A DNA stretch of 64,000 bases, from NCBI RefSeq assembly GCF_024298765.1, contig NZ_CP101210.1; one strand, 5' to 3'. How positions within the stretch are numbered: the first letter of the stretch is position 1; each line of letters starts with the position of its first letter. Positions 5,250 to 23,400 of the stretch are shown in pieces. The stretch comes from Escherichia coli (lineage in GTDB: Bacteria > Pseudomonadota > Gammaproteobacteria > Enterobacterales > Enterobacteriaceae). Below the pieces are notes generated by a model. The model was not told where the DNA came from. It did no database searches and saw only the letters and a list, made by a program, of their open reading frames with translations. Position numbers and translations under genes: made by a program.

Positions 5250-5899
5250 ACTCCCTCCTTCTGCGGTACAAAGCGCACGCTGTCTCCCGGACGTAATAAG
5301 ATGGGTTCGTCACGCGCCGGATCAAACAGGCTGAGTGAGGTATGACCAATCAACTGCCAGCCACCCGGCGTTGCCAGCGGATAAACACCGGTCTGCGGCC
5401 CGCCGATCCCGACAGAACCTGCCGGAACGAGCAAGCGCGGTTCAGCGCGCCGTGGCGTGTGTAGTTGTTCCGGCAAACTCCCGAGATACGGGAAGCCCGG
5501 TTGAAAACCTAAAAACCAGACCACGTATTCCACGGAGGAGTGCAATTCAACAACCTGTTTTTCGCTCAACCCACAATGCGCCGCGACCACCGCCAAATCC
5601 GGTCCGCCTGCGCCACCGTAAACCACCGGAATTTCAATAAAACGAGACTCCGGCTCCAGCGCCTCACTCTCCTCCCACCAGCGTTGCAAACGCTCTATGG
5701 CATCCAGCGCCAGCGACTCAGGATTACGTAAAATCACCGTGATATTGTTCATGCCAGGAATGGCTTCAACCACATTCGGCATATCCACCAGACGCTGCGC
5801 CAGTCGCCAGATCCGTTTCTGGCTAGCCAGCGTCACCGGCGGTTCCAGCTCCAGCACTACCGCCGTTTCACCTATCAGATAACAACGCGCTCGTTGCAC
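5243..5899 (-). CDS. pxpB: 5-oxoprolinase subunit B
   Basis: 218 aa ORF, first gene of cluster. Confidence 0.8.
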
Positions 5900-5921
5900 T
5901 TTCGATCCCTCTGATTATTCG

Positions 5922-6665
5922 TTATGCAGGATTAGGAATATCAATAAAGGTCACATCAAGATCGGTATTTTCATTCAGCCACTCGCTCAATGCGCGAATA
6001 CCACCGCGTTCAGTGGCATGGTGACCCGCAGCATAAAAATGCAATCCCTGCTCGCGGGCTGAATGAATGGTCTGTTCAGAAACTTCGCCAGTAATAAAAG
6101 CATCCACGCCAAAACGCGCGGCGCTATCGATAAAACTTTGCCCGCCGCCCGTGCACCAGGCGACGCGCTGGACCACCTCAGGTCCGGTATCGCCACACCA
6201 TAACGGCTTACGTCCCAGACGCGCTTCAATCCAGGAGGCCAGTTCCAGTCCCGGCACAGGCATGGTCAGTTCGCCCCACGGCACCAACGGCTCAATTTCG
6301 CCCATGACCGTGATCCCCAGTAACGCCGCCAGCTGTGCGTTATTGCCCAGCTCAGGATGTGCGTCAAGCGGCAAATGCCAGCCATACAGGTTGATATCAT
6401 TCGCCAGCAACGTTTTTAAACGGTTACGCTTCATGCCGCGAATGACCGGGGATTCGCCTTTCCAGAAGTAGCCATGATGCACAATGACCGCATCCGCGCC
6501 CAGACGCACCGCTTCATCGAGCAAAGCCTGGCTGGCAGTGACACCGGTAACAATTTTTTGCACCGTCTCTTTGCCTTCCACCTGCAAACCATTCGGCGCG
6601 TAATCACTAATCGCCGCGCTGTTCAGTTTTTCGTTAATCAGTTGTTCCAGTTCGGTGTTTTTCAT
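5922..6665 (-). CDS. ybgI: Nif3-family metal-binding protein
   Basis: 247 aa, recognised by sequence. Confidence 0.8.
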   Translation of the reverse strand: MKNTELEQLINEKLNSAAISDYAPNGLQVEGKETVQKIVTGVTASQALLDEAVRLGADAVIVHHGYFWKGESPVIRGMKRNRLKTLLANDINLYGWHLPLDAHPELGNNAQLAALLGITVMGEIEPLVPWGELTMPVPGLELASWIEARLGRKPLWCGDTGPEVVQRVAWCTGGGQSFIDSAARFGVDAFITGEVSEQTIHSAREQGLHFYAAGHHATERGGIRALSEWLNENTDLDVTFIDIPNPA

Positions 6666-6752
6666 CTTCGCGCCTTCCGTATTCTGATAGCTACACCGTT
6701 AACATAGCGTTACCTCGCCTGTTCGTCGATAGCCAATCTTTTGACATATTAA

Positions 6753-8417
<1,665 letters not shown>

Positions 8418-8459
8418 TAGACCAGCACCGATGCCTGATAAGACGCTCACTGCGTTTTA

Positions 8460-9878
8460 TCAGGCTCCTTTCCTCGCTTCTTCGTACGCTGCCAGCGTTC
8501 GCAGCCTTGCCTCTTTGTGATCAACTATCGGTTGCGGATAATCCAGCGTCATACCTGCTTTCTGCGCCCACTTCCACGGCTCATGCACCACTTTCCCTGG
8601 CACATCGCGCAGTTCCGGTAGCCACTGGCGGATAAACTCGCCTTCGCGGTCAAATTTCTCGCCCTGGGTTGTCGGGTTAAAAATACGAAAATACGGCGCT
8701 GCATCGGTTCCGGTTGAAGCGGCCCACTGCCAGCCACCGTTATTAGCTGCCAAATCACCATCAATCAGCTGCGACATGAAATATCGCTCGCCTTCGCGCC
8801 AGTCGATCAACAAATCTTTCACCAGAAAACTGGCTGTAATCATCCGTAGCCTGTTATGCATCCAGCCAGTGCTGTTAAGCTGACGCATGGCAGCATCGAC
8901 AATCGGGTATCCCGTTTTGCCTTCCTGCCAGGCCTGTAAATGTGCGGGATTGCTCTGCCACTGCACACGATCCGTCCAGGCAATAAACGGACAATGTTTA
9001 CACAACGAGGGGTAATACGTCATCAGATGACGGTAGAACTCGCGCCAGATCAGCTCACTAAGCCAGACACTACCGGCCCCACCGTCCAGCGCCTGCGGCT
9101 GTTCCGCCAACAAGCGATGCAAACACTGGCGAGGCGATAACCCGCCCGTTGCCAGGCTGGCGGACAAACGACTGGTGCCTTCCACTGCCGGAAAATCTCG
9201 TTGTTGCTCATATTCTCCGGCACCGTTCTGGCAAAACTGGCGTAATTGCGCAATCGCAGCTTTTTCTTCCACCGGGAAATGCGCAGTATCGAAAGACTGA
9301 CGAGGATAATTCAGCGTAATGGATGGCGCGGGCTTTATCGATCCGCTACTACGAACTTTTGGTGCAGCGACGCACTCCGGCATCCCTTCCCGCAGCCGTT
9401 TCAGCCAGGCATTTTGAAAAGGCGTAAAGACTTTGTACATCTCATGATTGTCAGTCATCACCGCGCCAGGCGGCAGGATCACGCTGTCATCAAATCCTTC
9501 ACACACCACGTTACGCAGCGTTCTCTCAACCTGCACATCCCGCGCCCGCTCATTCACCTCATACTGATAGTTATAAAAAAGATGAGTAACGCTGTTTTCC
9601 GCGCACACCTGTTTAACTATTTCGACGCTGGCGGCAAAGTCATCCACTTCACGGAACAATAAAGGAATGCCTTTTTCCGCCAGCGCGATTTGTAGCCCGT
9701 TCAGTTGAGCATTGATAAGTTCAGCCTGACGCGGCGACATGTTATGCGCCGCCCACTGGCGTGGTGTAGCGATATACAACGCCAGCACGCTTGCAGACGA
9801 ATTGCGGCAGGCGGCAGCCAGCGCGAGATTATCGTGCTGACGTAAATCCTGGCGAAACCAGACCAGATGGGTAGTCAT
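8460..9878 (-). CDS. phr: deoxyribodipyrimidine photolyase
   Basis: 472 aa, MTTHLVWFRQDLR N-terminus; overlaps ybgA start. Confidence 0.9.
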   Translation of the reverse strand: MTTHLVWFRQDLRQHDNLALAAACRNSSASVLALYIATPRQWAAHNMSPRQAELINAQLNGLQIALAEKGIPLLFREVDDFAASVEIVKQVCAENSVTHLFYNYQYEVNERARDVQVERTLRNVVCEGFDDSVILPPGAVMTDNHEMYKVFTPFQNAWLKRLREGMPECVAAPKVRSSGSIKPAPSITLNYPRQSFDTAHFPVEEKAAIAQLRQFCQNGAGEYEQQRDFPAVEGTSRLSASLATGGLSPRQCLHRLLAEQPQALDGGAGSVWLSELIWREFYRHLMTYYPSLCKHCPFIAWTDRVQWQSNPAHLQAWQEGKTGYPIVDAAMRQLNSTGWMHNRLRMITASFLVKDLLIDWREGERYFMSQLIDGDLAANNGGWQWAASTGTDAAPYFRIFNPTTQGEKFDREGEFIRQWLPELRDVPGKVVHEPWKWAQKAGMTLDYPQPIVDHKEARLRTLAAYEEARKGA

Positions 9879-10384
9879 AAAACTCCTGAATGGCGCAAGT
9901 TAATCACACACGGCCAAAGTTCGAAATAACGCTGCACTGAAAGCCAGGCGTCAGGATAAAGCGCCATATAGTGTTTGATACGCATCAGCGGCGCAAGAAG
10001 TGGTTGCTCGCCACGGCGATAACTGTCGATAAGCGCCGCCAGCTGCTGGCGTTCTGTGGAATCAATATGTGGGCGAAAATATCCCTGAACGTGCATCAAA
10101 ACGTTAGTATGATCACGCCGGTTGGCAGGGTGAGAAAGCAAAACAATCACGCGTTGGCGGTACTGGTTGTAATAGTCATCCAGACTTTGCCACCGGTGAA
10201 TATCAGCCACAAACGGGCCAAGTTTGCGGTATTCCGGCTGGGAATGCGCCAGAAAGACGAGTTTATAACGGCTGTGATAATCGAGAAGCGCCCCGCGCGT
10301 TAAGCCATGTTCTTTCAGTCGATATAGCTCATAAATCGCGAAGATGCGGATTAGGGTGCTTTCATCAAATCGTTGCTGATTCAT
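9875..10384 (-). CDS. ybgA: DUF1722-family protein
   Basis: 169 aa ORF upstream of and overlapping phr. Confidence 0.8.
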   Translation of the reverse strand: MNQQRFDESTLIRIFAIYELYRLKEHGLTRGALLDYHSRYKLVFLAHSQPEYRKLGPFVADIHRWQSLDDYYNQYRQRVIVLLSHPANRRDHTNVLMHVQGYFRPHIDSTERQQLAALIDSYRRGEQPLLAPLMRIKHYMALYPDAWLSVQRYFELWPCVINLRHSGVL

Positions 10385-10461
10385 TACTGCTCCTGAACGG
10401 TTTACAGGAGTAAGTGTAGACGTTGGGAAATGAAATTTGTGAAGTTAATCCTGTTGTAGCA

Positions 10462-11439
10462 GGGCAAGATTACGAAAGCCCGCTCCCCGTAAGGACTGAC
10501 GCCAGGTAGTTTCTGTCCATAGCTGCCCTTTCTATTCAAACGTGAAATCAATAAGTTCATCAGGGACATCACAAACAATATGAAGACGGGTTTCTTCTCT
10601 GCCGTGACTCTTTTCACTAATTGAGTAACTGTCGTGCTCTGGATTATTTAATTCTTTCAGCGGAAATTTTTCCTCAAAGGCTTTATTAAGCCGCCACCTG
10701 ATTTCCTTTTACAGCGAATAAATAATCACCTCCCTGTTTTTGTATCTTCTCTGCAATATCTTTCTGGCAACTCATCGCATCAGTTGTGATGATTTTTCCT
10801 TTAATATCCAGCATGTTAAGAAGTTCAGGGATAGCTGTAATTTCATTGGATTTCTCATCCGTCCTGATCTGTCCGATGACCAGACTGTGCATTGTTGAGA
10901 ACGCACTAATGACATGAATCGCTCCCCTGCGGCGACTCTTGTCATAAGAATGCCGGAGCGTTTTTCCATCAATTGCAATAACGTCTTTATCATCTGAAGA
11001 ATGGCAGTCACGCATCCAGTTAATAAAGCACTCGTGAAATTTTGAAGGACTGATACAGGATACAACTCTGGCGATGGTATCGTGAACAGGAATACCATTT
11101 TAAAAATCACCATATTGTTTTAAAAAATCGAGATGTGTTTCCCCAAAATCCTCTATATCTTCCCAACCATCTGCACCAGAAATAACGGCACAAATAGTCA
11201 ACAGTAGAATATCCGACAATTTATGTTCCACTTTTCCAGGATTGTCTGTAATCGGGAATAACAGAAATATGTTCCATCAATTTTTTAAGTACCATTTTGT
11301 TCTCCTTAATTATGTAAGGAGTATTTGATCATGTATAAGCAATAAAAAACAGCTTTAGGTAATGAGGAATATCTCAATTTTTAAACATAAAATGCGAATT
11401 GTCTAGTACAAAAAAGCAGCGTTACGTGATCTTTCCCTG
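10462..11439 (-). mobile_element. degenerate ISAs1-family (H-repeat) copy with internal deletion and frameshift
   Basis: Both ends match the ends of the intact copy at 13087..14388 (CAGGGxAAGATTACG... and ...CGTTACGTGATCTTTCCCTG); about 320 bp missing from the 3' part; ORF fragments 10686..11015 and 10772..11113. Confidence 0.7.
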
Positions 11440-11532
11440 AGAGGTACAGGAACTGCGGGAGGAACTTTATCAGGTTAAACAGGGGTTAAGGGGATGCGGA
11501 ACGGGATGTTTAGTGTGCTGAACGAAAGCTAA
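11440..11532 (+). pseudogene. 3' fragment of SymE-family gene, truncated by the ISAs1 copy
   Basis: ...QELREELYQVKQGLRGCGTGCLVC-type tail homologous to the end of 14396..14725; begins exactly at the IS end. Confidence 0.6.
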
Positions 11533-11534
11533 AT

Positions 11535-11572
11535 AATAAAAAAGCCGGGAAGATCTTATCTTTCCCGGCCAT
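11535..11572. terminator. hairpin + T-run between convergent genes
   Basis: aagccgggaagatcttatctttcccggc inverted repeat. Confidence 0.5.
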
Positions 11573-11587
11573 CTTGCCATACATTAA

Positions 11588-12022
11588 TTATTTATGAATA
11601 TAATATAACTGAACATCATATTCATTATCACTTAAAACTATTAGTCGATCGGGAAATGTAAATGCTAATGAAAGATCATATGTTTCATTTATCGAAAACA
11701 AACTCAATATGAAATTTGAAAAATTTTCGACATGAAGAGATATGCAAACATCTCCATTATAGAATATATTGCAAAGAATATCTTTTTTCACATTCAGTGT
11801 ACTTTCAACATCTCTCGCTAGATCATTAATATTTAAAGGTAAATTGAAAACTCTCCTTTCAATAATATTATCGGTTTTATTTATTGCCATTAGCATTTCT
11901 CGATGCCACATGAAGTCATTCTTACGTAAGAATGATACATCAAAGGAAGTGACACCATTTAATTTAGAAGCATAATCTTTTGCTCTAATTAAATTTAATT
12001 TATCTTCAAGGCTAATTTTCAT
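11588..12022 (-). CDS. putative immunity protein of orphan Rhs C-terminal toxin
   Basis: 144 aa ORF starting 11 nt inside the 3' end of the toxin stub; position-based call only. Confidence 0.5.
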   Translation of the reverse strand: MKISLEDKLNLIRAKDYASKLNGVTSFDVSFLRKNDFMWHREMLMAINKTDNIIERRVFNLPLNINDLARDVESTLNVKKDILCNIFYNGDVCISLHVENFSNFILSLFSINETYDLSLAFTFPDRLIVLSDNEYDVQLYYIHK

Positions 12023-12470
12023 AATATATATGATGATCCTTAGTTACAGGGTCATTGATCTTCTGATATCTATCACTTTTGAAATCGTATGTTCTAGGAT
12101 CAGCGCCCGGTTTAGGTTGTCCTGCATGTGCGTGAGGGCCAGGTGCCCTAGGATCTGCCGTGTGCTCGACTACAACTTTCTTACGTCCGTAGGCATCTGT
12201 ATATTCATAATATCGCCCATGAGACCCTAAATCTTCCGAATATTTATAATTTGTTTGTCCCCTTCTTCTAGGATCATTTCCAACGGTCCATTGCCTATTA
12301 GGTTGCTGTGAACGAGGTATGCCCGCAAGATCTTTTGCTTTATTTAGTGCCTGACGACGGTTTCTTAATTCACCACATTTAAGACCAAGCGGATCTATCC
12401 AGCTTACTGGATTAGGCGCGTAAGCATATAAGTTTAGCCCCCCCGCCAGCCCTATCGGGTCGGGTTACGT
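12012..12470 (-). pseudogene. orphan rhs C-terminal stub: last ~25 core codons (..PIGLAGGLNLYAYAPNPVSWIDPLGL) plus ~125-aa toxin tip, no start codon
   Basis: Hand translation of minus strand; in-frame stop immediately upstream of the core remnant; absent from ORF track because it lacks a start. Confidence 0.6.
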
Positions 12471-12634
12471 AAATGTTCCACAGTCCGAGTCGTAGTACCT
12501 CAGAAGGTTGCAGTGCAATCCCGCCTTGCGACATCAAGGCATAGTTTCAGAAAAAGTAAGGAGCAATCACCATACCCCAATTCACTGGGTGCTAAATAAT
12601 ATCTGGTAACATCCCTTACTTCAATTCTATTTCA

Positions 12635-13030
12635 TTACAACTTCTTTACTTTCCATATTCTTTGCGCAGCTAAAAAAGATACTCCTTTGAACCAAGACGC
12701 ACATTCAATAACTTGTTCCCATGAATATATTTTATGTGAGCTAAATTTTATCGATTCATCTTGGTTCATTATCTCAATAAAATAATATCCTTTATTATAA
12801 TCTCTTTTTTCTATTCTATCTTCAGCTCTTGCCGAACGTATAGAAATAACACAATCATCTAATAAACAAAATCTTTTCTTTATAATCGCATCATCTTGGT
12901 TCCATGGATTTGTACTTGCCATTTGTTCTGATTGTTTCAGCTCATTCACTACTGTATACCAAATAGCTTCGGTATCACTTGCCTTTGCATTCTCTCTATC
13001 AGACTCGGATCTAAATATAATTTTGTCCAT
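12635..13030 (-). CDS. putative orphan immunity protein (cognate toxin replaced by ISAs1)
   Basis: 131 aa ORF; about 20 codons of an upstream ORF end in TAA overlapping its ATG (TAAAATG) just before the IS end. Confidence 0.4.
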   Translation of the reverse strand: MDKIIFRSESDRENAKASDTEAIWYTVVNELKQSEQMASTNPWNQDDAIIKKRFCLLDDCVISIRSARAEDRIEKRDYNKGYYFIEIMNQDESIKFSSHKIYSWEQVIECASWFKGVSFLAAQRIWKVKKL

Positions 13031-13086
13031 TTTAATAATCCAAATGTAAATTACTTAAAATACCCTCTGCCTCATTCCAGGCATTG

Positions 13087-14388
13087 ACATGGGAACCCAG
13101 GGAAAGATTACGAAAGCCCGCTCCCAGCAAGGACTGACGCCAGATAGTTTCTGTCCATGGCTGCTTTTCGCATCTTACGTCTTAACCCTGCCTTGAATAC
13201 CTTATCATTCGTCAAAATATTAATAGCGATGTGCCGTATCCCTGAAAATAATTCTGCTGCATTTCCTCTTCTTATTTTGCAGTCGTCTTCATTCATTACC
13301 ACGTCCAGACGCCAGTGCAGCTTATTCTCCACGTGCCAGTGGTTTCGGATTGCTGTGGCGAACTTCTCTGCGGTTAAATCAGCAGAACTGATATAATATC
13401 TGACCGTCATTTCTGGCTCTTTCTTTTGTTCTGCTATTATTGACCGAAAGGAGACTGCCACGCATAATTTCTTCAGACCTTTCCATTCAAACGTGAAATC
13501 AATAAGTTCATCAGGGACATCGCAAACAATATGAAGACGGATTTCTTCTCTGCCGTGACTTTTTTCACTAATTGCGTAACTGTCATGCTCTGGATTATTT
13601 AATTCTTTCAGTGGGAATTTTTCCTCAAAGGCTTTATTAAGCCGCCCCTGATTTCCTTTTACAGCGAATAAATAATCACCGCCCTGTTTTTGTATCTTCT
13701 CTGCGATATCTTTCTGGCACCCCATCGCATCAGTTGTGATAATTTTTCCTTTAATATCCAACATGTTAAGAAGTTCAGGGATAGCTGTGATCTCATTGGA
13801 TTTCTCATCCGTCCTGATCTGTCCGATGACCAGACTGTGCATTGTTGAGAACGCACTAATGACATGAATCGCTCCCCTGCGGCGACTCTTGTCATAAGAA
13901 TGCCGGAGCGTTTTTCCATCAATTGCAATAACGTCTTTATCATCTGAAGAATGGCAGTCACGCATCCAGTTAATAAAGCACTCGTGAAATTTTGCAGGAC
14001 TGATACAGGATACAACTCTGGCAATGGTATCGTGAACAGGAATACCATTTTCAAAATCACCATATTGCTTCAAAAAATCGAGATGTGTTTCCCCAAAATC
14101 CTCTATATCTTCCCAGCCTTCTGCACAAGAAATAACGGCACAAATAGTCAACAGTAGAATATCCGACAATTTATGTTCCACTTTCCAGGCTTGTCTGTAA
14201 TCGGGGATAATAGAAATATGTTCCATCAATTTTTTAAGTTCCATTTTGTTCTCCTTAATTATGTAAGGAGTATTTGACCATGTATACGCAATAAAAAACA
14301 GCTTCAGGTAATGAGGAATATCTCAATTTTTAAACATAAAATGCGAATTATTTAGTACAAAAAAGCAGCGTTACGTGATCTTTCCCTG
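13087..14388 (-). mobile_element. ISAs1-family insertion sequence (H-repeat), apparently intact
   Basis: About 1.3 kb; imperfect terminal inverted repeats; single 378-aa transposase ORF. Confidence 0.8.
13108..14244 (-). CDS. ISAs1-family transposase (H-repeat-associated protein)
   Basis: 378 aa, [32 protein letters not shown]..., matches Rhs-associated H-rpt proteins. Confidence 0.9.
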
Positions 14389-14395
14389 GTTAATC

Positions 14396-14725
14396 ATGGC
14401 TGAACACGATATTACGCCAGAAATCACCATTTCCAAAACACAGCGCCGCTATAAAGTCGGCTATGTCAGAGCCCGCCACATAAACAGCAAAACCTACATG
14501 ACCACGTACTACTCACGACACCCCAGCCTGAACCTCAAGGGCGACTGGCTGAAAGAGGCCGGATTTGATACCGGGCGGGGTGTCACGGTGAAGATTTCGG
14601 AGGGGTGCCTGACCATCATCGCTGACAGTGACGAGGTGCAGGAACTGCGGGAGGAACTTTATCAGGTTAAACAGGTGGTTAAGGGGATGCGGAGCGGGAT
14701 GTTTAGTGTGCTGAACGATAATTAA
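14396..14725 (+). CDS. SymE-family (type I toxin-like, AbrB-fold) protein
   Basis: 109 aa; LKGDWLKEAGFDTGRGVTVKISEGCLTIIA resembles the SymE core [30 protein letters not shown] (from memory); start trimmed from ORF 14375. Confidence 0.7.
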   Translation: MAEHDITPEITISKTQRRYKVGYVRARHINSKTYMTTYYSRHPSLNLKGDWLKEAGFDTGRGVTVKISEGCLTIIADSDEVQELREELYQVKQVVKGMRSGMFSVLNDN

Positions 14726-14727
14726 AT

Positions 14728-14772
14728 AATAAAAAGCCGGGAAGATTTAATTTTCTTTCCGGCTTTGTCTAA
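14728..14772. terminator. bidirectional hairpin terminator
   Basis: aagccgggaagatttaattttctttccggctt between convergent genes. Confidence 0.5.
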
Positions 14773-14776
14773 TTAA

Positions 14777-15145
14777 TTATTCAGGAAATTTTCTATTTTT
14801 ATATGATGACCATAAGTGAGTGATCGACCAAGAGTTTTCCTTTCCGAGTACAAAACTTTTGGAGATTATCTCAATATCATCAGATATACGCGAAGATATT
14901 TCAGAATTATTAATCACCCTGAATGAGTATTTAAATGCCTTTTCTCGCAAGGAATCAATAAACTCAATATCATCATCCTGAAAACTTTCCTTATCTAATG
15001 AATTAAACTCACTCATCCAGCAATCATCAAACTCCGGTTCATCTCTTGAGTCTAATGCACTATCAACATTTAATGATTTAAGAAAATCAAAAAATGACGG
15101 GGTGGATAAACAGTTATCAATTTCAATTAGCTTATTATTAATCAT
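14777..15145 (-). CDS. putative immunity protein of orphan Rhs toxin
   Basis: Acidic ~122 aa protein; ATG overlaps toxin stop in TGATG arrangement. Confidence 0.55.
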   Translation of the reverse strand: MINNKLIEIDNCLSTPSFFDFLKSLNVDSALDSRDEPEFDDCWMSEFNSLDKESFQDDDIEFIDSLREKAFKYSFRVINNSEISSRISDDIEIISKSFVLGKENSWSITHLWSSYKNRKFPE

Positions 15146-15790
15146 CACATTAACCCTTGTCCTTTGAGCCAAACCTCTATTAAATCAACAGCCTTGGATG
15201 GTGTCACATTAGTACCTAGCGTATAAGTTCCATTTGGAGATTTAACATCAACTCTGATGTCATCTAATTTTGAATACGCTTTTCTGTAAGCATCAAATAA
15301 CTCTTTATCCGAACCAAGGAAATCACCTTGTCTTGGACCTATCACATCTCGTTCCGCATGATGTAAACGCCAGTGATTATGTTCTGGATTTTCTCCTCTA
15401 GGGAATAATGTTGGGCGAGTTTTATCAGATCGGGAAACTTCAAACGGACGTCCTTTAGATTTACGAACCGCAGGAACATGATGTCCAGATTCACTCACGC
15501 CCATACACTTCTTCGTTAATCCAAGGGGATCGATCCAGCTTAACGGATTCGGTGCATAAGCATACAGGTTTAACCCGCCTCTTAGCCCTATCGGGTCCGT
15601 TACCATGAACCGCCCGACATCCGGATCATAGTACCTGTGCAGATTGTAATGCAGCCCCGTTTCCCTGTCGAGGTACTGTCCCTGGTAGCGCAGGTTCTGC
15701 TCCACCCCGCCGTGGTCCTTCTCCTGTATCGTGTTACCCCAGACCTGATACCCCGTCTCCCACACGATTTTCCCGTCACTGTCCGTCATC
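15145..15790 (-). pseudogene. orphan rhs C-terminal fragment: ~90 core codons + DPLGL + ~120-aa toxin tip with GHH signature
   Basis: ORF 15145..15825; core part near-identical to main rhs (MTDSDGKIVWETGYQVWGN...DPIGLRGGLNLYAYAPNPLSWIDPLGL); 5' end cut by ISAs1. Confidence 0.65.
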
Positions 15791-15792
15791 TC

Positions 15793-17084
15793 CAGGGCAA
15801 GATTACGAAAGCCCGCACCCCGCAAGGACTGACGCCAGATAGTTTCTGTCCATGGCTGCTTTTCGCATCTTACGTCTTAACCCTGCCTTGAATACCTTAT
15901 CATTCGTCAAAATATTAATAGCGATGTGCCGTATCCCTGAAAATAATTCTGCTGCATTTCCTCTTCTTATTTTGCAGTCGTCTTCATTCATTACCACGTC
16001 CAGACGCCAGTGCAGCTTATTCTCCACGTGCCAGTGATTTCGGATCGCTGTGGCGAACTTTTCTGCGGTTAAATCAGCAGAACTGATATAATATCTGACC
16101 GTCATTTCTGGCTCTTTCTTTTGTTCTGCTATTATGGACCGAAAGGAGACTGCCACGCATAATTTCTTCAGTCCTTTCCATTCAAACGTGAAATCAATAA
16201 GTTCATCAGGGACATCACAAACAATATGAAGACGGGTTTCTTCTCTGCCGTGACTCTTTTCACTAATTGAGTAACTGTCGTGCTCTGGATTATTTAATTC
16301 TTTCAGCGGAAATTTTTCCTCAAAGGCTTTATTAAGCCGCCACCTGATTTCCTTTTACAGCGAATAAATAATCACCTCCCTGTTTTTGTATCTTCTCTGC
16401 AATATCTTTCTGGCAACTCATCGCATCAGTTGTGATGATTTTTCCTTTAATATCCAGCATGTTAAGAAGTTCAGGGATAGCTGTAATTTCATTGGATTTC
16501 TCATCCGTCCTGATCTGTCCGATGACCAGACTGTGCATTGTTGAGAACGCACTAATGACATGAATCGCTCCCCTGCGGCGACTCTTGTCATAAGAATGCC
16601 GGAGCGTTTTTCCATCAATTGCAATAACGTCTTTATCATCTGAAGAATGGCAGTCACGCATCCAGTTAATAAAGCACTCGTGAAATTTTGCAGGACTGAT
16701 ACAGGATACAACTCTGGCAATGGTATCGTGAACAGGAATACCATTTTCAAAATCACCATATTGCTTCAAAAAATCGAGATGTGTTTCCCCAAAATCCTCT
16801 ATATCTTCCCAGCCTTCTGCACCAGAAATAACGGCACAAATAGTCAACAGTAGAATATCCGACAATTTATGTTCCACTTTCCAGGCTTGTCTGTAATCGG
16901 GGACAATAGAAATATGTTCCATCAATTTTTTAAGTTCCATTTTGTTCTCCTTAATTATGTAAGGAGTATTTGATCATGTATAAGCAATAAAAAACAGCTT
17001 TAGGTAATGAGGAATATCTCAAATCTTAAACATAAAATGCCAATTATTTAGTACAAAAAAGTAGCGTTACGTGATCTTTCCCTA
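15793..17084 (-). mobile_element. ISAs1-family copy, transposase frameshifted
   Basis: Same ends as the copy at 13087..14388; ORF split into 16332..16940 and 15803..16156; 1-bp difference (gccgccacctgattt vs gccgcccctgattt). Confidence 0.75.
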
Positions 17085-17089
17085 AAACG

Positions 17090-17555
17090 CAGACCCAGTT
17101 GTGCATAGTACACATGGTACGCAACAGCCTGCGGTTCGTGACGTGGAAAGACTATAAAGCGGTAACCCGTGACCTGAAACAGGTTTACCGCGCGGCCACG
17201 GAAGAAGGCGTGTTGCAGGCGCTGGATGCGTTCGGGAAGGAATGGGATGCACGGTACCCGCAGATAAGTCGCAGCTGGCGGGCAAACTGACCGAATGTTG
17301 CCACCTTCTTCGTGTACCCGGAGGCGATCCGAAAGGTTATCTACACCACTAACGCAATCGAATCGCTGAATAGCGTCATCAGACATGCGATAAAGAAAAG
17401 GAAAGTGTTCCCGACAGATGAATCGGTGAAAAAAGTGGTGTGGCTGGCTATCCAGTCAGCCTCACAGAAATGGACGATGCCACTTCAGGACTAGCGGATA
17501 GCCATGAGTCGCTTTATTATCGAGTTCGGTGACCGCCTTGACGGTCACTTCTGAG
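17090..17555 (+). pseudogene. IS256-family (Mutator-type) transposase, 3' remnant with frameshift
   Basis: ORFs 17099..17290 and 17312..17494 carry ...VHMVRNSLRFVTWKDYKAV... and ...IYTTNAIESLNSVIRHAIKKRKVFPTDESVKKVVWLAIQSASQKWTMP... Confidence 0.6.
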
Positions 17556-17619
17556 AAAGGCATTTACACAGAATGATGGACAGGCTCAACGGGAAGGCTA
17601 CATGCCTTCCCATTTTATA

Positions 17620-17946
17620 TTAATCACCCGGCTTCTCCCAACATTTTATCTTTTCTATTTCTCTCTCAATATCATCCATATCATCATCTCCAAGATCGGT
17701 ATTAAAATTTTCAGTAATAACCCTTCTTATTTCAGCCAACCGATGTGTAATATTTTTATCATCAATAAATTTAGTGGTTTCTTTAAAGTAAGAATTCAAC
17801 AATTTATCATCAATAACGTTCTGCTCTATACCATTGAAATAATACCTTGCAATATTCTTAAGTGATATCAATATGTACTCTACCTCACTTAGAATATAAA
17901 GGGCATCCTTCCCGGGTATATTAATTACATCATTGTTTTTATTCAT
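17620..17946 (-). CDS. putative immunity protein of orphan Rhs toxin
   Basis: 108 aa ORF starting 1 nt after the orphan toxin stop. Confidence 0.55.
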   Translation of the reverse strand: MNKNNDVINIPGKDALYILSEVEYILISLKNIARYYFNGIEQNVIDDKLLNSYFKETTKFIDDKNITHRLAEIRRVITENFNTDLGDDDMDDIEREIEKIKCWEKPGD

Positions 17947-17947
17947 A

Positions 17948-19735
17948 TTATTTACGCCGAGTTATTTTTGCATTATCAGAAAGAACAATATCACCTTTCA
18001 CAGTCAATTCATCTATATGGTATCGAGGGTTTGTTACCCACTCTAATTGCTCGTTAGGTACATCTGTTTCCACATAATCTCTACCTTTCCCACGACCTAT
18101 TTGATATTTCGCCTCTATGTCTACTTGACTGAGTGGTTTTTTATTCGCAGGTTCCAAATATACACGACCGTTATCATGCGCCTTAATTATCCCACTTTCA
18201 GCAATCGCATTTGAACCTTTACGATTAGTATAATGCCGCACACGAGTAGTTCCATTACAGAGCTCTTTTTTTAATCCGAGTGGATCAATATATTTCAGCG
18301 GATTAGGCGCATAAGCATATAAGTTCAACCCACCCGCCAGCCCTATCGGATCCGTTACAATGAACCGCCCGACATCCGGATCATAGTACCTGTGCAGATT
18401 GTAATGCAGCCCTGTTTCCCTGTCGAGGTACTGTCCCTGGTAGCGCAGGTTCTGCTCCACCCTGCCGTGGTCCTTCTCCTGTATCGTGTTACCCCAGACC
18501 TGATACCCCGTCTCCCACACGATTTTCCCGTCACTGTCCGTCATCTCTTCCGGCGCGCCGTTCACATCCGTGTGAAAATACAGTATCCGGTTCGGGCCCT
18601 CTTTGCCCGCCTTATCCACCCGCGCCAGCGGTTCATAACTCCCCGGGTCCCTGTAGATGTACAGGCTGTCTGTTCCCTCCGGCCTGCTCTCCTGCGCCAG
18701 CCGCATTCCGTCCCATAAAAATGCCGTCCGGTTGTACGGTTTACCGTCAGGGCTGATGTGCTGTTTTTCCGTCCGCCTCCCCAGCGCATCGTACACATAC
18801 CGGTACGTTCCCCGCGCTGTCGTCACTTCCACCATCCGGTGTTCCGCATCATAACGGTAACTCTGCGTGCCGCTCCGCCCCTCCTTTTCCACCGCACGGC
18901 CAAATTCGTCGTAACGGTAGTGCACACCACGGTAAGACATCAGCCGGTTGAACGGCACCACGCTGTTTTCTGCCGTGGCCCTTTCCCCCGCGCGCCGCCC
19001 CAGCAGGTTTCCCGCCGCGTCGTACTGCCAGCTCGCCAGATACCCCTCATCCTCCGAGCGGCACGCCGTGATGCGCCCCGTGGGGTCGTAGAAGTAATCC
19101 GTTTCCCCCCGCCGGCTGTGCCGCGTCTTCAGCAGTTCATCCTCGCCACTGTAGCTGTACTGCCGGTCCGTGAACGTCTCCGGTACCACCCCGCGCATCC
19201 CGCTGTATGTCTCCCTGCGCTTCAGCCGCCCGGCGGGGTCGTAAAGCTGCCGCGTGCTCAGTCGCCCCTGACTTCTGAGCACTTCACGGTGCAGGGCGTC
19301 ACGAGTGAACTCGCTGATGACCTCCCGGTCCAGATTTATCTGCTGGAGATGGCCGCTGCCGTAGTACAGATGACGCTGCGTTCTGCCGTCCGGAAAGGTG
19401 GTGGCTGTCCGGTTGCTGAGTTCATCGTACTGATGGGTCAGGACGCCCTGCGCCGTCTCCTCAGTCAGCATCCGCCCCAGTCTGTCGTAACTGAAACGGA
19501 TAATCTCCGGTGCGTCTGTTTCCCCGGCATCCGACCGTCGGCGGCGGATTTCCAGTAACTGGTCTGCCGCATCATGGACGTATTCCGTACGGCTATCGGC
19601 TGTCTCCTTTGCCGTGAGCCGGCCCGCCGCATCACGTGCCAGCCGGTGGCGGATTTCACCGCCCCGGTCCCCGGTGAACACCACTTCCGTGACCGCGTTC
19701 AGCGCGTTGTAGCGGTACGTCTGGCGGCAGCCGTC
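17948..19735 (-). pseudogene. orphan rhs fragment: ~490 core codons + ~105-aa alternative toxin tip, 5'-truncated
   Basis: ORF 17948..19753; homology to main rhs starts at ...CRQTYRYNALNAV; 18392-19735 is near-identical to 20910-22253. Confidence 0.75.
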
Positions 19736-19764
19736 GTGCTGCCAGCGCAGCATCTGCCCAACCG

Positions 19765-19978
19765 CAGCGACACGCCGGTGATCAAAATCAGCGCCAAATG
19801 GCTGAGAGAAGCGGGATTTGAGATCGGCACGGGCGTTACCGTGAAGATCTCGGAAGGCTGCCTGATCCTGCTTGCAGATAACAACGGAGTACAGGAACTG
19901 CGCAGGGAACTTTATCAGGTTAAACAGTCTGTTAAGGGGATGCGGAACGGGATGTTTAGTATGCTGAACGATAATTAA
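19765..19978 (+). pseudogene. SymE-family gene, C-terminal fragment
   Basis: ...IKISAKWLREAGFEIGTGVTVKISEGCLILLADNNGVQELRRELYQVKQSVKGMRNGMFSMLNDN homologous to 14396..14725; N-terminus lost at the orphan rhs junction. Confidence 0.6.
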
Positions 19979-19984
19979 ATAATA

Positions 19985-20020
19985 AAAAGCCGGGAAGATT
20001 TAATTTCTTACCCGGCTTTT
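19985..20020. terminator. bidirectional hairpin terminator
   Basis: aaaagccgggaagatttaatttcttacccggctttt. Confidence 0.5.
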
Positions 20021-20043
20021 GATAACTTAATAATATTATAATC

Positions 20044-20424
20044 CTAAATCAATCTTTTTTTTAATTCCCTTATTTCAGGAGTTAATGCAAAACTGTCTTC
20101 TAAAGATTCGTCATCCAAGGCCCAGTAATTAATAAGATCTATATGATTTTTATAATTATCAAGCAGAGTGTTGAGTGCTTTTACAATAACTTTATCTGAA
20201 GGAGGTACTCCAGAAGATAATAAATCATTACAGACATCAAGGGCTAAAGTCATTAATTCATTCTTCCCTTTTTGTGAGTAGCCATTATTTAAATATGCAG
20301 CAATATATTTACTTAACCACTCTTTAGTTCGATATTTTTCAGGCAGTTCATAAGCCCAATCTTGTGTAAACTTATCACTCACTGGTACACCAAGTTCACT
20401 ACAGATTTTATCTATTTCATTCAT
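20044..20424 (-). CDS. putative immunity protein of the main Rhs toxin
   Basis: 126 aa ORF 18 nt downstream of rhs stop; position-based call. Confidence 0.55.
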   Translation of the reverse strand: MNEIDKICSELGVPVSDKFTQDWAYELPEKYRTKEWLSKYIAAYLNNGYSQKGKNELMTLALDVCNDLLSSGVPPSDKVIVKALNTLLDNYKNHIDLINYWALDDESLEDSFALTPEIRELKKRLI

Positions 20425-20441
20425 ATATATCCTTCATTATT

Positions 20442-23400
20442 TTAGTTGTCGTGTGATGAATTGAATGGGAACGATGTACGTACAGAACCGTCGGGTTTTA
20501 CAACAACCCTTGCCATATCTGGAACTACCTCTGTCCCATCAGGTAAATAACCTCGACTTTTTATATTTGTAGGCAATGGCACATCATGCACACCTGGTCC
20601 TTTTTTGGCAACAGAAGCAATAAAATCAGCAGCAGAATTATCATCGAGATATTGTCCAACTTGATGACCTTTATTTCTGGCACGATCAATTAACTGATTT
20701 GGTTTCATTTTCTGTCCGTGTTCAGAAAAGGTGTGACCGTATGTAGGCTTACTTTTTGGATTTCCCCATTTGAAGTCAGATTTAGGACACAATCCAAGTG
20801 GGTCGATCCATGACAGTGGATTAGGTGCATACTGATATAAGTTTAACCCGCCTCTCAGCCCTATCGGGTCCGTTACCATGAACCGCCCGACATCCGGATC
20901 ATAGTACCTGTGCAGATTGTAATGCAGTCCCGTTTCCCTGTCGAGGTACTGTCCCTGGTAGCGCAGGTTCTGCGCCACCCCGCCGTGGTCCTTCTCCTGT
21001 ATCGTGTTACCCCAGACCTGATACCCCGTCTCCCACACGATTTTCCCGTCACTGTCCGTCATCTCTTCCGGCGCGCCGTTCACATCCGTGTGAAAATACA
21101 GTATCCGGTTCGGGCCCTCTTTGCCCGCCTTATCCACCCGCGCCAGCGGTTCATAACTCCCCGGGTCCCTGTAGATGTACAGGCTGTCTGTTCCCTCCGG
21201 CCTGCTCTCCTGCGCCAGCCGCATTCCGTCCCATAAAAATGCCGTCCGGTTGTACGGTTTACCGTCAGGGCTGATGTGCTGTTTTTCCGTCCGCCTCCCC
21301 AGCGCATCGTACACATACCGGTACGTTCCCCGCGCTGTCGTCACTTCCACCATCCGGTGTTCCGCATCATAACGGTAACTCTGCGTGCCGCTCCGCCCCT
21401 CCTTTTCCACCGCACGGCCAAATTCGTCGTAACGGTAGTGCACACCACGGTAAGACATCAGCCGGTTGAACGGCACCACGCTGTTTTCTGCCGTGGCCCT
21501 TTCCCCCGCGCGCCGCCCCAGCAGGTTTCCCGCCGCGTCGTACTGCCAGCTCGCCAGATACCCCTCATCCTCCGAGCGGCACGCCGTGATGCGCCCCGTG
21601 GGGTCGTAGAAGTAATCCGTTTCCCCCCGCCGGCTGTGCCGCGTCTTCAGCAGTTCATCCTCGCCACTGTAGCTGTACTGCCGGTCCGTGAACGTCTCCG
21701 GTACCACCCCGCGCATCCCGCTGTATGTCTCCCTGCGCTTCAGCCGCCCGGCGGGGTCGTAAAGCTGCCGCGTGCTCAGTCGCCCCTGACTTCTGAGCAC
21801 TTCACGGTGCAGGGCGTCACGAGTGAACTCGCTGATGACCTCCCGGTCCAGATTTATCTGCTGGAGATGGCCGCTGCCGTAGTACAGATGACGCTGCGTT
21901 CTGCCGTCCGGAAAGGTGGTGGCTGTCCGGTTGCTGAGTTCATCGTACTGATGGGTCAGGACGCCCTGCGCCGTCTCCTCAGTCAGCATCCGCCCCAGTC
22001 TGTCGTAACTGAAACGGATAATCTCCGGTGCGTCTGTTTCCCCGGCATCCGACCGTCGGCGGCGGATTTCCAGTAACTGGTCTGCCGCATCATGGACGTA
22101 TTCCGTACGGCTATCGGCTGTCTCCTTTGCCGTGAGCCGGCCCGCCGCATCACGTGCCAGCCGGTGGCGGATTTCACCGCCCCGGTCCCCGGTGAACACC
22201 ACTTCCGTGACCGCGTTCAGCGCGTTGTAGCGGTACGTCTGGCGGCAGCCGTCCGGATTTATCTGCTCCGCCAGACGGTCCAGCACGTCATGGCGGAACC
22301 GGTAGCTTTCTCCGTTCTCGTTTGTCAGCGTGACCAGACGCCCGTAAGCATCGTACCCGAACGCCGTCCTGCGCCCCGTCGCGTCTGTCCGGCTGCGCAC
22401 CCGGCCCTGCCCGTCCCGCTGCCAGCGCGTTATCCTCCCCATCGGGCTGGTGTACTTCACCAGCCTGCCCGCCGCGTCCGACTGGTAATTCACCGTGCGG
22501 CCGTCCGCCAGTATCACCTCCGTCAGGTGGCCGCTGTCGTCATACCCGTAGCGCGTGCTGTGGCTCTGCGCGTCTGTCATCCGTATCAGCCGCGTGCGTT
22601 CGTCGTAGAACCAGGCCGTCTGCGAGCCGGAACAGTCCGTGTGCCGCATGAGCTGCCCGTCTTCGTTCCACTGAAGGTATTTATTCCCCCCGCGCGCATC
22701 GGTTATCTGCACCACCTGGCCGTGGCGGTCATACTGATACCGGGTGTTCTGCTGCAGCGGGTCGGTCACCGCAAGAAGATTGCCGCGTTCATCGTACTCA
22801 CAGCACCAGCTGTTCCCCGCCGCGTCCACCTCCGTTTCCGGCTGGTGCCACACCGGGTGCCACTGTGTCTGTGCCACCCGCCCCAGCGGGTCGTGCGTCT
22901 CCGTGATATGCCCCTGCCGGTCATACACATAGCGCCATTTGCCGCCCTGCGCATCGGTCATTCCCAGTAACAGCCGTTCTTCGTCGCTCCAGCGGAACGT
23001 CGTCACCTGCCCGGCTTCGTCCTGGTACGCCGTCACCTGATTCTGCGCGTCCCACTGATGATAACGCGTGCGCCCCAGCCCGTCCGTCACGCACAGCCTG
23101 CGTGACGCCAGGCTCCACGCCAGCCGGTACTGTTCACCGCTGTCCGTGTGGTGCCCCGTCACCCGCCACGCTGCGTCATCCGGGCCTTCATACCAGCTCC
23201 ACTGGTAATAATACCCTTCGCCGCCCGGCTGGCGGTGCAGGGTCATGCAGTGGTTTTCGTCGTAAGCAAACTCGCGCAGCAGGTGTCCCGTGCTGTCGTA
23301 CACGCCGTTCAGGTCGCCGGCCTCGTCATAGCGGTAACGACGCAGCAGTAAAGGAGCCGTCTCAGGGAAATGCTGATAAATCTGTGTCACCCGCCGGGGA

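Follow-up and report, generated by a model that had tools for sequence, protein, structure and literature searches.

We analysed a window of 64,000 nucleotides from the Escherichia coli contig NZ_CP101210.1, in which the kdp-phr rhs site of E. coli carries a full-length rhs gene followed by dissociated toxin tips. The main gene and the module nearest to it comprise the following features:

25119..25319, minus strand: remnant (last 66 codons) of an Eag/DcrB-family chaperone gene; RefSeq "DcrB-related protein, missing N-terminus"; Pfam DcrB 0.0018
20442..25100, minus strand: main rhs gene, 1552 aa; ORF list and RefSeq annotation of the 99.8%-identical locus L001
20791..22253, minus strand: repeat copy 1, core segment of the main rhs gene, residues ~950-1437
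20856-20962: homologue of the Salmonella internal P2 promoter in the main gene
20442..20790, minus strand: CT-A, tip of the main gene, 115 aa after DPLGL, of an unannotated toxin family
20044..20424, minus strand: immA, presumed CT-A immunity gene, 126 aa, directly downstream of the tip; GC 0.31
19736..19978, plus strand: 5'-truncated SymE-like gene, convergent with immA; Pfam SymE_toxin 2.7e-9, model positions 11-52 of 54; RefSeq SymE family
17948-19735, minus strand: coding sequence of orphan 1, a RefSeq pseudogene missing its N-terminus
18273..19735, minus strand: repeat copy 2, core fragment of orphan 1
18338..18444, minus strand: P2 homologue in the orphan 1 core upstream of the tip, from alignment to the 108-nt P2 of PMC7043789
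17948..18272, minus strand: CT-1, tip of orphan 1, HYD1-type ADP-ribosyltransferase toxin domain; Pfam Tox-ART-HYD1 PF15633, 8e-13
17620..17946, minus strand: imm1, presumed from its position to be the CT-1 immunity gene, 108 aa; GC 0.30

The main Rhs protein is laid out as a prePAAR-like motif, an N-terminal hydrophobic region, a PAAR motif, a DUF6531 domain, a YD-repeat core and a variable tip. The prePAAR motif is defined as AARxxDxxxH, and AARQGDALLH is read directly from the sequence at residues 7-16, with a hydrophobic stretch after it. Pfam searches returned PAAR_motif (4.9e-5, a partial match only) and DUF6531 (5.3e-10), NCBIfam searches returned RHS_core (3.2e-98) and YD_repeat_2x (2.9e-65, 11 stretches), and the model Rhs_assc_core (TIGR03696) matched at 1.7e-28. 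The motif PxxxxDPxGL closes the Rhs-associated core and marks the start of the variable C-terminal tip; DPLGL lies at residue 1433 of the main protein and also precedes the tips of orphans 1, 2 and 3. GC content is 0.61-0.62 in the core, 0.38-0.41 in the tips and 0.30-0.32 in the immunity genes. CT-A is by prediction a probable RNase, and NCBIfam and Pfam searches found no family match for the presumed ImmA. Where CT-1 is called separately, RefSeq names it "HYD1 signature containing ADP-ribosyltransferase", and imm1 accompanies it in 72/72 genomes that carry the module. The initial annotation had described an orphan tip with an immunity gene of its own, which agrees with the Tox-ART-HYD1 match and with the 108-aa gene that lies where an immunity gene is expected. 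The truncated SymE-like fragment adjoins the orphan core at 19735/19736, and its isrA match of only 34 bits lies below the Rfam threshold.

Further downstream, the array continues with two more orphans among insertion elements:

17090..17494, plus strand: fragment of a Mutator-family transposase gene; Pfam Transposase_mut 3.7e-31; RefSeq pseudogene
15792..17083, minus strand: frameshifted ISAs1 (H-repeat) copy, a repeat of the other ISAs1 copies
15145..15825, minus strand: orphan 2, tip of unknown family, with a core fragment of 275 nt (15518-15792) that is 92-94% identical
14777..15172, minus strand: orphan 2 immunity gene, presumed from position; GC 0.32
14396..14725, plus strand: full-length SymE-like gene; Pfam SymE_toxin 1.4e-18; NCBIfam SymE 1.8e-13
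14467-14595, minus strand: isrA-family antisense RNA match opposite the full-length SymE-like gene; Rfam 117.6 bits against a gathering score of 51
11588..12455, minus strand: orphan 3, with an HNH/EndoVII tip (Tox-HNH-EHHH) at 12012-12455; Pfam 4.4e-8; RefSeq annotation
11588-12022, minus strand: presumed orphan 3 immunity gene, part of orphan 3

The core of orphan 2 is cut at 15792 by the ISAs1 element, direct repeats of which lie at 13097-14387 (an intact ISEc1) and 10527-11438 (a partial ybfD). ISAs1 copies also bound the natural deletion alleles L005, L002, L007, L008, L011 and L019. The full-length SymE-like copy, which combines a SymE ORF with a predicted cis-antisense small RNA, has the make-up of a SymE/SymR-type type I toxin-antitoxin module. 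The core fragment of orphan 2 is the third in the array, and a fourth core remnant was seen at 12385-12523; the initial annotation had overlooked both.

Self-BLAST and base-by-base comparison showed that 18273-19735 and 20791-22253 form an ungapped, co-oriented direct repeat of 1463 bp with 98.4% identity and an offset of exactly 2518 bp. The 23 mismatches between the copies all fall at 18278-18463, within the 191 nt adjoining the toxin tips, while 18464-19735 and 20982-22253 are 100% identical over 1272 bp. The repeat is not a chance match. Orphan 1 lacks a delivery part and shares with the main gene a core length and similarity sufficient for homologous recombination. The initial annotation had proposed a near-identical core repeat with this offset from spurious ORFs paired at 18392/18562/18758 and 20910/21080/21276; these are present in the ORF list (108, 78 and 266 aa), and the pairwise alignment bears the repeat out, with none of the substantial divergence that had been named as grounds for refutation. 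Its coordinates (18270-19735 and 20788-22253) were 3 nt off at the tip end, and its estimated length of 1.35-1.45 kb was slightly short. Near-identical repeats of 1.3 kb are a classic source of mis-assembly, but 23 fixed differences separate the two copies. The arrangement and its junctions recur identically in ~44 other complete E. coli genomes from many laboratories, so that the probability of a core duplicated by assembly error is negligible.

Recombination between the copies had been predicted to fuse the main rhs gene to the orphan tip. The computed junction yields an in-frame ORF for a 1544-aa Rhs ending in CT-1, with loss of CT-A, immA and the SymE-like fragment, and 4 residues separate this product from the Rhs annotated in strain 2009C-3133. 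The fused allele exists in nature. When the predicted junction was used as a query, 29 complete genomes matched at >=80% coverage, 9 of which (H27-H35) gave one contiguous match of 99.6-99.8% identity at the kdp-phr locus; overall, the 2518-bp deletion allele is found at this locus in ~27-29 complete E. coli genomes and the window-type allele in ~44, the sampled genomes being phylogenetically non-independent. The CT-1/imm1 module was present in 72 and the CT-A/immA module in 45 of 5426 genomes. In both allele classes, the flank of ~29 kb differs from the window by 0-4 SNPs. In deleted-allele genomes, immA is absent genome-wide.

We mapped the crossovers with the common window-type pair of copies as reference, taking the switch from orphan-type to main-type variants as the crossover point. 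The 6 sampled deleted alleles of the near-identical lineage mapped to 4 crossover classes along the repeat, given by offset:

141-171: MDR_56
183-876: E5, CT265, CT282 and 14EC020
876-969: 2009C-3133
1032-1245: 20Ec-P-124

A deleted allele was also found in a more divergent lineage (2014C-3338, with 21F61 as its window-type counterpart). The four classes, together with the deleted allele in the divergent lineage, indicate that the deletion event recurred. Sequence patches also differ between genomes: between offsets 452 and 727, both copies in the window read CCTGC, and both copies of seven other window-type genomes read TTCT and then G or C. The paralog at the pptA locus is a 100% match to the CCTGC version. 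By these patterns, the repeat copies swap sequence patches with each other and with the vgrG-linked paralog, thereby staying near-identical.

We consider it very likely that recombination between the core repeats removes 2518 bp and switches the tip. Homologous recombination, probably as RecA-type intrachromosomal deletion, would excise CT-A, immA, the SymE-like fragment and one repeat copy, leaving a full-length Rhs with a HYD1 ADP-ribosyltransferase tip followed by imm1. The small genes after the tips would be immunity genes, imm1 would be expressed, possibly from the conserved P2-like internal promoter, and the T6SS could deliver the fused protein as an effector. The array itself was probably built earlier by the reverse reaction, the integration of a tip-bearing circle, as in the model of Jackson 2009; in that work, excision and integration through homologous recombination in the core were proposed, with circular intermediates that are hypothetical (PMC2935791).

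Judged from one genome, the founding event may have been a tip displacement by insertion, or a deletion. A strain that had taken up a tip-bearing circle would also be expected to show a mosaic deleted allele, and repeated deletion is argued for only by the fact that the alleles form a graded series. It could be supposed that the single-tip allele is ancestral, that a 2518-bp circle (the 1463-bp core, CT-A, immA and the SymE fragment) displaced the HYD1 tip downstream, and that the repeat is the scar of this Campbell-type integration, with no later deletions. This is the published model for the origin of such arrays (PMC2935791), and window-type strains would withstand both toxins, which is what a newer, competition-winning allele should confer. 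The core|SymE junction is moreover old and recurs in strain 06-00048, in an array of ~95% identity that has CT-A as an orphan; the 2518-bp unit therefore existed elsewhere and could have been imported. We nevertheless regard an insertion without later deletions as improbable: the 4 mosaic single-copy classes switch exactly between orphan-specific and main-specific variants, each of 3 flank SNP haplotypes carries both allele classes, as does the second, divergent lineage, and it is simpler to suppose that the unit popped out repeatedly across 1272 identical bases than that the same 2.5 kb was imported repeatedly.

The architecture is that described for Rhs orphan arrays (PMC3967940, PMC2935791), as the initial annotation had recognized. 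The C-terminal displacement model of Jackson 2009 (PMC2935791) concerns the same chromosomal position, E. coli rhs position 5 (kdpA-phr), and likewise includes dissociated tips with core fragments identical to the upstream gene, GC-rich cores and AT-rich tips. For position 5, that study reported Clade I rhs genes in every strain it examined but Shigella flexneri, which has Clade III (PMC2935791), whereas the main rhs gene here resembles the Salmonella/SPI-6 type. In the rhs-main/rhs-orphan locus of Salmonella Typhimurium SPI-6 (Koskiniemi et al. 2014, PMC3967940; Starsta et al. 2020, PMC7043789), the gene for a full-length prePAAR-type Rhs likewise has an orphan behind it, made up of a core fragment, a tip and an immunity gene. 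When the core segments that the two have in common recombine, the delivery part acquires the orphan tip, and the main tip is lost along with its immunity gene. Both loci also have a P2-like internal promoter sequence ahead of the tips, with a SymE-like gene and an antisense RNA of the isrA type further downstream. Recombination between main and orphan genes occurs there over 522 bp at 95% identity (PMC3967940), whereas the two copies in the window share a longer and cleaner stretch of homology (1463 bp, of which 1272 identical), and the evidence is natural allelic variation rather than laboratory evolution. None of the genomes with CT-1 or CT-A modules among the 5426 searched showed a duplication allele, the kind of intermediate that has been proposed in Salmonella. 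Unlike the Salmonella locus, that of E. coli has no intact Eag gene and no adjacent T6SS or vgrG, and it holds extra orphans and ISAs1 elements.

In the Rhs elements of E. coli K-12, as here, the main gene is followed by partial cores and ISAs1/H-rpt copies; rhsC sits at the same kdp-phr site, as a member of another rhs lineage with different tips. The CdiA arrays of orphan cdiA-CT/cdiI modules (Poole et al. 2011) reportedly retain a piece of the upstream conserved region, with transposase genes interspersed, in which they would resemble the orphan toxin/immunity modules of this locus. CdiA uses another delivery system, two-partner secretion, and has its tip demarcated by VENN, as opposed to PxxxxDPxGL in the Rhs protein here.

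Whether tip switching is adaptive or in use is a separate matter. The initial annotation had called the orphan "positioned" for swapping, and the swap architecture is there; the implied purpose fits less well with a main gene that has neither an intact Eag gene nor an adjacent vgrG. The eag remnant is identical at 65/66 residues to the C-terminus of the intact 150-aa Eag of the paralogous vgrG-eag-rhs locus; beside the main rhs gene we found neither intact eag nor vgrG, and ybfA comes after the remnant. With eag truncated, no vgrG adjacent, immA lost in deleted strains and several fused genes frameshifted, we find adaptive use of the switch doubtful. The recombination could also be real at a locus that is a silent partial duplicate of the pptA-locus vgrG-eag-rhs operon, in which deletions, IS insertions and frameshifts are the erosion of an unused array and serve no toxin-switching strategy, a reading to which we give almost an even chance. 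The copy starts inside eag, a promoter scan upstream of the main rhs gene found nothing above chance, and the array has taken insertions of IS21-family and IS50R elements. Frameshifts affect 4/13 sampled fused genes through at least 3 independent mutations, and the persistence of strains without immA is hard to square with active deployment of CT-A among kin. Since the main Rhs is ~100% identical to the pptA-locus paralog over residues 101-1400, gene conversion, rather than selection, may keep it intact. Against such decay, the 1552-aa main gene is intact in 10/10 sampled window-type genomes, the orphan immunity genes are 99-100% identical across 71 genomes, intact vgrG and eag, present in the same genomes at the pptA locus, could supply their products in trans, and Salmonella deploys such fusions (PMC3967940).

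The orphan could also be more than a reserve, either as an internally transcribed toxin-antitoxin-like module or as immunity against HYD1-deploying kin. P2 of Salmonella is an experimentally mapped internal promoter (PMC7043789); the main gene, orphan 1 and orphan 2 each carry its homologue ~70-170 nt ahead of their tip, with the -10 element CATTACAAT kept. HYD1 is the main tip in the ~27-29 related strains, and imm1 would therefore protect window-type strains. The -35 element differs, however (TCGACA against TTGACG in P2); a consensus scan for promoters picks out TCGACA-17-TACAAT at 18426-18398, but its total of 8 sites in the region, against 5.0 +/- 2.4, is not above chance. We hold a role of this kind to be unlikely.

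The architecture and mechanism are already published (Jackson 2009; Koskiniemi 2014), and the locus is a clear example of this known mechanism. The present analysis adds to it a range of natural recombinants whose crossover intervals were mapped. A still further reading, very improbable in our view, is a reversible toggle at the population level, in which circles of the 2518-bp unit would be released and could re-integrate or pass to kin, with gene conversion from the paralog keeping the core copies identical. If this were true, a clonal, poultry-associated E. coli lineage would continually yield RNase-armed or ADP-ribosyltransferase-armed subpopulations, in effect making an interbacterial toxin phase-variable.

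The array of this E. coli window lies, in its annotated counterpart (L001), between kdpFABCDE/ybfA and ybgA/phrB, the location of rhsC in K-12. Jackson et al. 2009 (PMC2935791) number this site as rhs position 5. Searches with an 8.5-kb window query showed that 11 RefSeq complete genomes (H1-H11), mostly from avian/poultry isolates and some from humans, match its full length as one contiguous piece with 99.6-99.8% identity. The array is composed of the following features.

20442-25100, minus strand: main rhs gene, 1552 aa, with a prePAAR-like AARQGDALLH motif, a hydrophobic N-terminal stretch, a partial PAAR match and DUF6531
Core of the main rhs gene, minus strand: eleven YD-repeat matches, Rhs-associated core, DPLGL at residue 1433
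Tip of the main gene, minus strand: CT-A, 115 aa, unnamed family
20044-20424, minus strand: immA, 126 aa, presumed immunity gene for CT-A from its position
19736-19978, plus strand: 5'-truncated, convergent SymE-like gene (Pfam, 2.7e-9), adjoining the orphan core at 19735/19736
Orphan 1 core fragment, minus strand: 1463 bp
17948-18272, minus strand: CT-1, tip of orphan 1, HYD1-type ADP-ribosyltransferase (PF15633, 8e-13)
17620-17946, minus strand: imm1, 108 aa, presumed immunity gene for CT-1 from its position
Downstream of orphan 1: Mutator-family transposase fragment
15792-17083, minus strand: frameshifted ISAs1 (H-repeat element) interrupting the core of orphan 2
Farther downstream than orphan 1, minus strand: orphan 2 and its presumed immunity gene
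Full SymE-like gene, with a match to an isrA-family antisense RNA
13097-14387: intact ISEc1, between the full SymE-like gene and the lone small gene
12635-13030, minus strand: lone small AT-rich gene, 131 aa, between ISEc1 and the HNH tip
Beyond the lone small gene, minus strand: HNH/EndoVII tip and its presumed immunity gene (orphan 3)
10527-11438: partial ISAs1, the last element listed

The core has a GC content of 0.61-0.62, the tips of 0.38-0.41 and the immunity genes of 0.30-0.32, which is the classical Rhs pattern of a GC-rich core with AT-rich tips and immunity genes. Members of the CT-A family are mainly short tip-like proteins in Pectobacterium, Xenorhabdus, Cronobacter, Proteus and Paenibacillus. 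Sequence searches of Pfam, NCBIfam and PDB with CT-A gave zero matches, and fold comparison was the sole informative approach. No family was found in Pfam or NCBIfam for any of the immunity proteins or for the orphan-2 tip. Serglycin matches in the Pfam profile searches were set aside, as they arise from the Gly-Ser linkers joining the query sequences. The 131-aa gene, with neither a family match nor an adjoining tip, may be a stranded immunity gene.

The initial annotation had proposed that a near-identical repeat of the rhs core, with an offset of 2518 bp, places an alternative toxin/immunity pair in position for swapping by deletion. Self-comparison of window positions 10000-30000 bore out the repeat, with tip-end coordinates shifted by 3 nt: the dominant direct repeat pairs 18273-19735 with 20791-22253 (1463 bp, gapless, 23 mismatches, offset 2518 bp). 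Pairwise alignment of the two core copies placed all 23 mismatches within 18278-18463, in the 191 nt nearest the toxin tips, and the other 1272 bp are identical. The paired spurious ORFs of equal length on which the proposal drew are present in the ORF list. An assembly artefact was ruled out, the identical arrangement being found in about 44 complete genomes.

A crossover within the repeat was expected to fuse the main rhs gene to the orphan tip. Joining 25100-22254 to 19735-17948 in silico indeed gave an uninterrupted 1544-aa ORF with the HYD1 tip at its end. We searched for this product in 5,426 complete E. coli genomes, using as junction query 17400-19735 joined to 22254-23500. The query was covered at 80% or more in 29 genomes, nine of which (H27-H35) carry it as a single contiguous piece with 99.6-99.8% identity. 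In the annotated regions, the deleted alleles (main rhs fused to CT-1) are found at the same place, bordered on one side by the same Eag remnant, ybfA and kdp; on the other side, the array is as in the window in CT265 and 2009C-3133, or shortened by ISAs1-ISAs1 recombination in E5, CT282 and 14EC020. The Rhs annotated in 2009C-3133 differs from the predicted fusion at 4 of 1544 residues. In the same genome set, the CT-1/imm1 module was detected in 72 genomes and the CT-A/immA module in 45, always as a single copy. These correspond to about 44 window-type and 27-29 deleted-type alleles in one lineage, plus strain 06-00048. APEC O2-211 and strain 104 are among the window-type isolates. No duplication or amplification allele, the reciprocal product and proposed Salmonella intermediate, was found, and neither tip occurs twice in any genome. 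Apparent larger variants of 10.9 and 11.4 kb contained no additional modules and came from the merging of BLAST pieces across orphan 2 or across an ISAs1-ISAs1 deletion; the extra 2.6 kb in 181.1 and the odd spacing in 2020N21-246 are IS21-family insertions.

Other rearrangements were also observed in the array. The ISAs1/H-repeat copies at 13097-14387, 15792-17083 and 10527-11438 are direct repeats with 96-98% identity, and natural alleles lacking exactly the intervals between them were seen with both core alleles. In GPEC1352 the missing part comprises orphan 2 with its immunity gene and the full SymE gene; E5, CT282, 14EC020, 21F61 and 2014C-3338 lack orphans 2 and 3. Insertions comprise the IS21-family ISSso4 at the SymE/core junction (181.1, L014), ISEc12 within the orphan core (2020N21-246, L015) and IS50R adjoining imm1 (MDR_56, L016).

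In about 29 kb of unique flank, both allele classes are 0-4 SNPs from the window; window-type 21F61 shows 168 differences, and the deleted allele of 2014C-3338 belongs to the same divergent lineage. Each of three flank SNP haplotypes includes both allele classes, and each of the two core alleles (window-type, deleted) was found with each of the two tail states (full, ISAs1-deleted), which is only suggestive, as the SNPs are too few for a tree. A flank-SNP phylogeny to polarise the event had no resolution, with 0-4 SNPs in about 29 kb and three usable sites that fail the four-gamete test. SNP clusters at 14553-14761 and 19806-20013 were discarded as cross-mapping between two SymE paralogs. A simple mosaic argument was likewise dropped: one mosaic allele fits both directions, since a circle that integrates would leave the same pattern as a deletion.

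We therefore used the graded series of crossover points, expressed as offsets along the repeat from its tip end. Sites that separate the main copy from the orphan copy in most window-type genomes number 20 within offsets 1-87, with further ones at 132, 138, 141, 171 and 183; several genomes show extra differences at 876, 969, 1014, 1032 and 1245. Compared with the common window-type pair, deleted alleles carry orphan-type variants near the tip and main-type variants at the opposite end, and the interval of the switch varies: 141-171 in MDR_56, 183-876 in E5, CT265, CT282 and 14EC020, 876-969 in 2009C-3133, and 1032-1245 in 20Ec-P-124. These four classes cannot all be ancestral, and at least three must have been generated by the main and orphan copies of a window-type locus recombining with each other. 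We therefore conclude that the predicted deletion has occurred several times in nature. The initial observation is confirmed and its interpretation supported.

Within offsets 452-727, both window copies read CCTGC, and in seven other window-type genomes both copies have TTCT and then G or C. A 100% match to the CCTGC version exists in the same genomes at another locus. That locus adjoins pptA and carries vgrG together with genes for an intact DcrB/Eag-family protein (150 aa) and for an Rhs of 1458 aa, which over residues 101-1400 is about 100% identical to that of the window. In strain 104 (L017), of the same lineage, this vgrG/eag/rhs operon is about 0.8 Mb from the kdp-phr copy. The shared patch shows that sequence patches are exchanged among three core copies through gene conversion, which keeps the repeat recombinogenic. 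Residues 28-90 of the main Rhs (24830-25020), an N-terminal hydrophobic region, are 60% identical to the paralog, against about 100% elsewhere. At the kdp-phr locus of CT265 (L003) this region is the paralog's version, which looks like gene conversion.

The junction between core and SymE is identical in strain 06-00048, where CT-A and HYD1 are both orphans in a longer array, roughly 95% identical. This shared junction shows that the unit of core fragment, SymE fragment, immA and CT-A is old and did not originate in the recent ancestry of the window. An old unit fits the displacement model (PMC2935791), in which arrays are built through insertion of tip-bearing units and trimmed through deletion. 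The 06-00048 array (L006, locus coordinates 5000-16490) holds at least five tip/immunity/SymE units, ISEc1, and xerC and primase gene remnants. Rfam searches gave an isrA (Salmonella island sRNA) match above threshold at 14467-14595 (minus strand), antisense to the full SymE-like gene, a weak isrA match at 19748-19848 (minus strand), antisense to the SymE fragment, and partial matches to Shigella Ssr1 at 19714-20075 (minus strand), from the SymE fragment into the 3' end of immA. Positions 14546-14780 and 19799-20034 share 81% identity. A SymE/antisense-RNA unit thus seems to close each tip module and might double as a homology arm on the downstream side. A 2007 paper (PMC1891008) already pointed out that SymE-family genes occur in association with RHS and haemagglutinin genes.

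The rearrangement mechanism is well supported, but its biological use is not. The Eag gene before the main rhs (25119-25319) retains only its last 66 codons, 65 of which are identical to the paralog's, and there is no vgrG at this copy, which has the look of an incomplete duplication of the pptA-locus operon, starting inside eag. Residues 28-90 are presumably the transmembrane region bound by Eag proteins; with only 60% identity to the paralog there, help in trans from the pptA-locus Eag is uncertain. In 4 of 13 sampled deleted alleles (L008, L019, L020, L022) the fused rhs is frameshifted, through at least three independent mutations (1-nt deletions near 19109 and at 22690, and a 34-nt deletion at 19115), and all 10 sampled window-type main genes are intact, in samples that are small and not independent. 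Relaxed selection on the fusion, or selection against it, could explain these frameshifts. immA is found nowhere in the genomes of deleted strains; their persistence argues against strong CT-A deployment among kin, an issue also raised by Koskiniemi et al. (PMC3967940). Neither promoters nor terminators exceeded chance expectation in scans of the region surrounding the orphan and of the sequence preceding the main gene. By alignment, a homologue of the experimentally mapped Salmonella internal P2 promoter lies shortly before the tip of the main gene (20856-20962) and those of orphan 1 (18338-18444) and orphan 2, so that tips and immunity genes may be transcribed independently. If so, imm1 would shield window-type strains from kin with a HYD1 main tip. 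With the chaperone and spike genes missing and fusions often inactivated, caution is needed, and the array dynamics may be largely neutral.

The locus adds a good new example to a kind of system that is already known and does not represent a new kind; the toxin-switching architecture initially recognized matches published accounts. The main/orphan rhs architecture of Salmonella SPI-6 is alike; there, the orphan tip fuses to the main gene by recombination over 522 bp with 95% identity, and a duplication intermediate was proposed (PMC3967940) that was not seen among the E. coli assemblies here. The locus also matches the C-terminal displacement model, in which dissociated tips bring along pieces of core sequence identical to that of the upstream gene; this chromosomal position is among those it lists (PMC2935791). 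What sets the E. coli locus apart is its unusually long stretch of perfect homology, the two toxin classes involved, the natural recombinant series, the three-way gene conversion and the absence of chaperone and spike genes at this copy. These alleles give natural, multi-strain support to a mechanism for which the evidence so far came chiefly from comparative inference and a single laboratory-evolution study in Salmonella. Here the orphan Rhs tip is more than a relic, as it has repeatedly been joined to a full-length gene via shared-core recombination. Near-isogenic poultry and human E. coli isolates, one 2518-bp event apart and carrying two toxin classes, offer a convenient test system.
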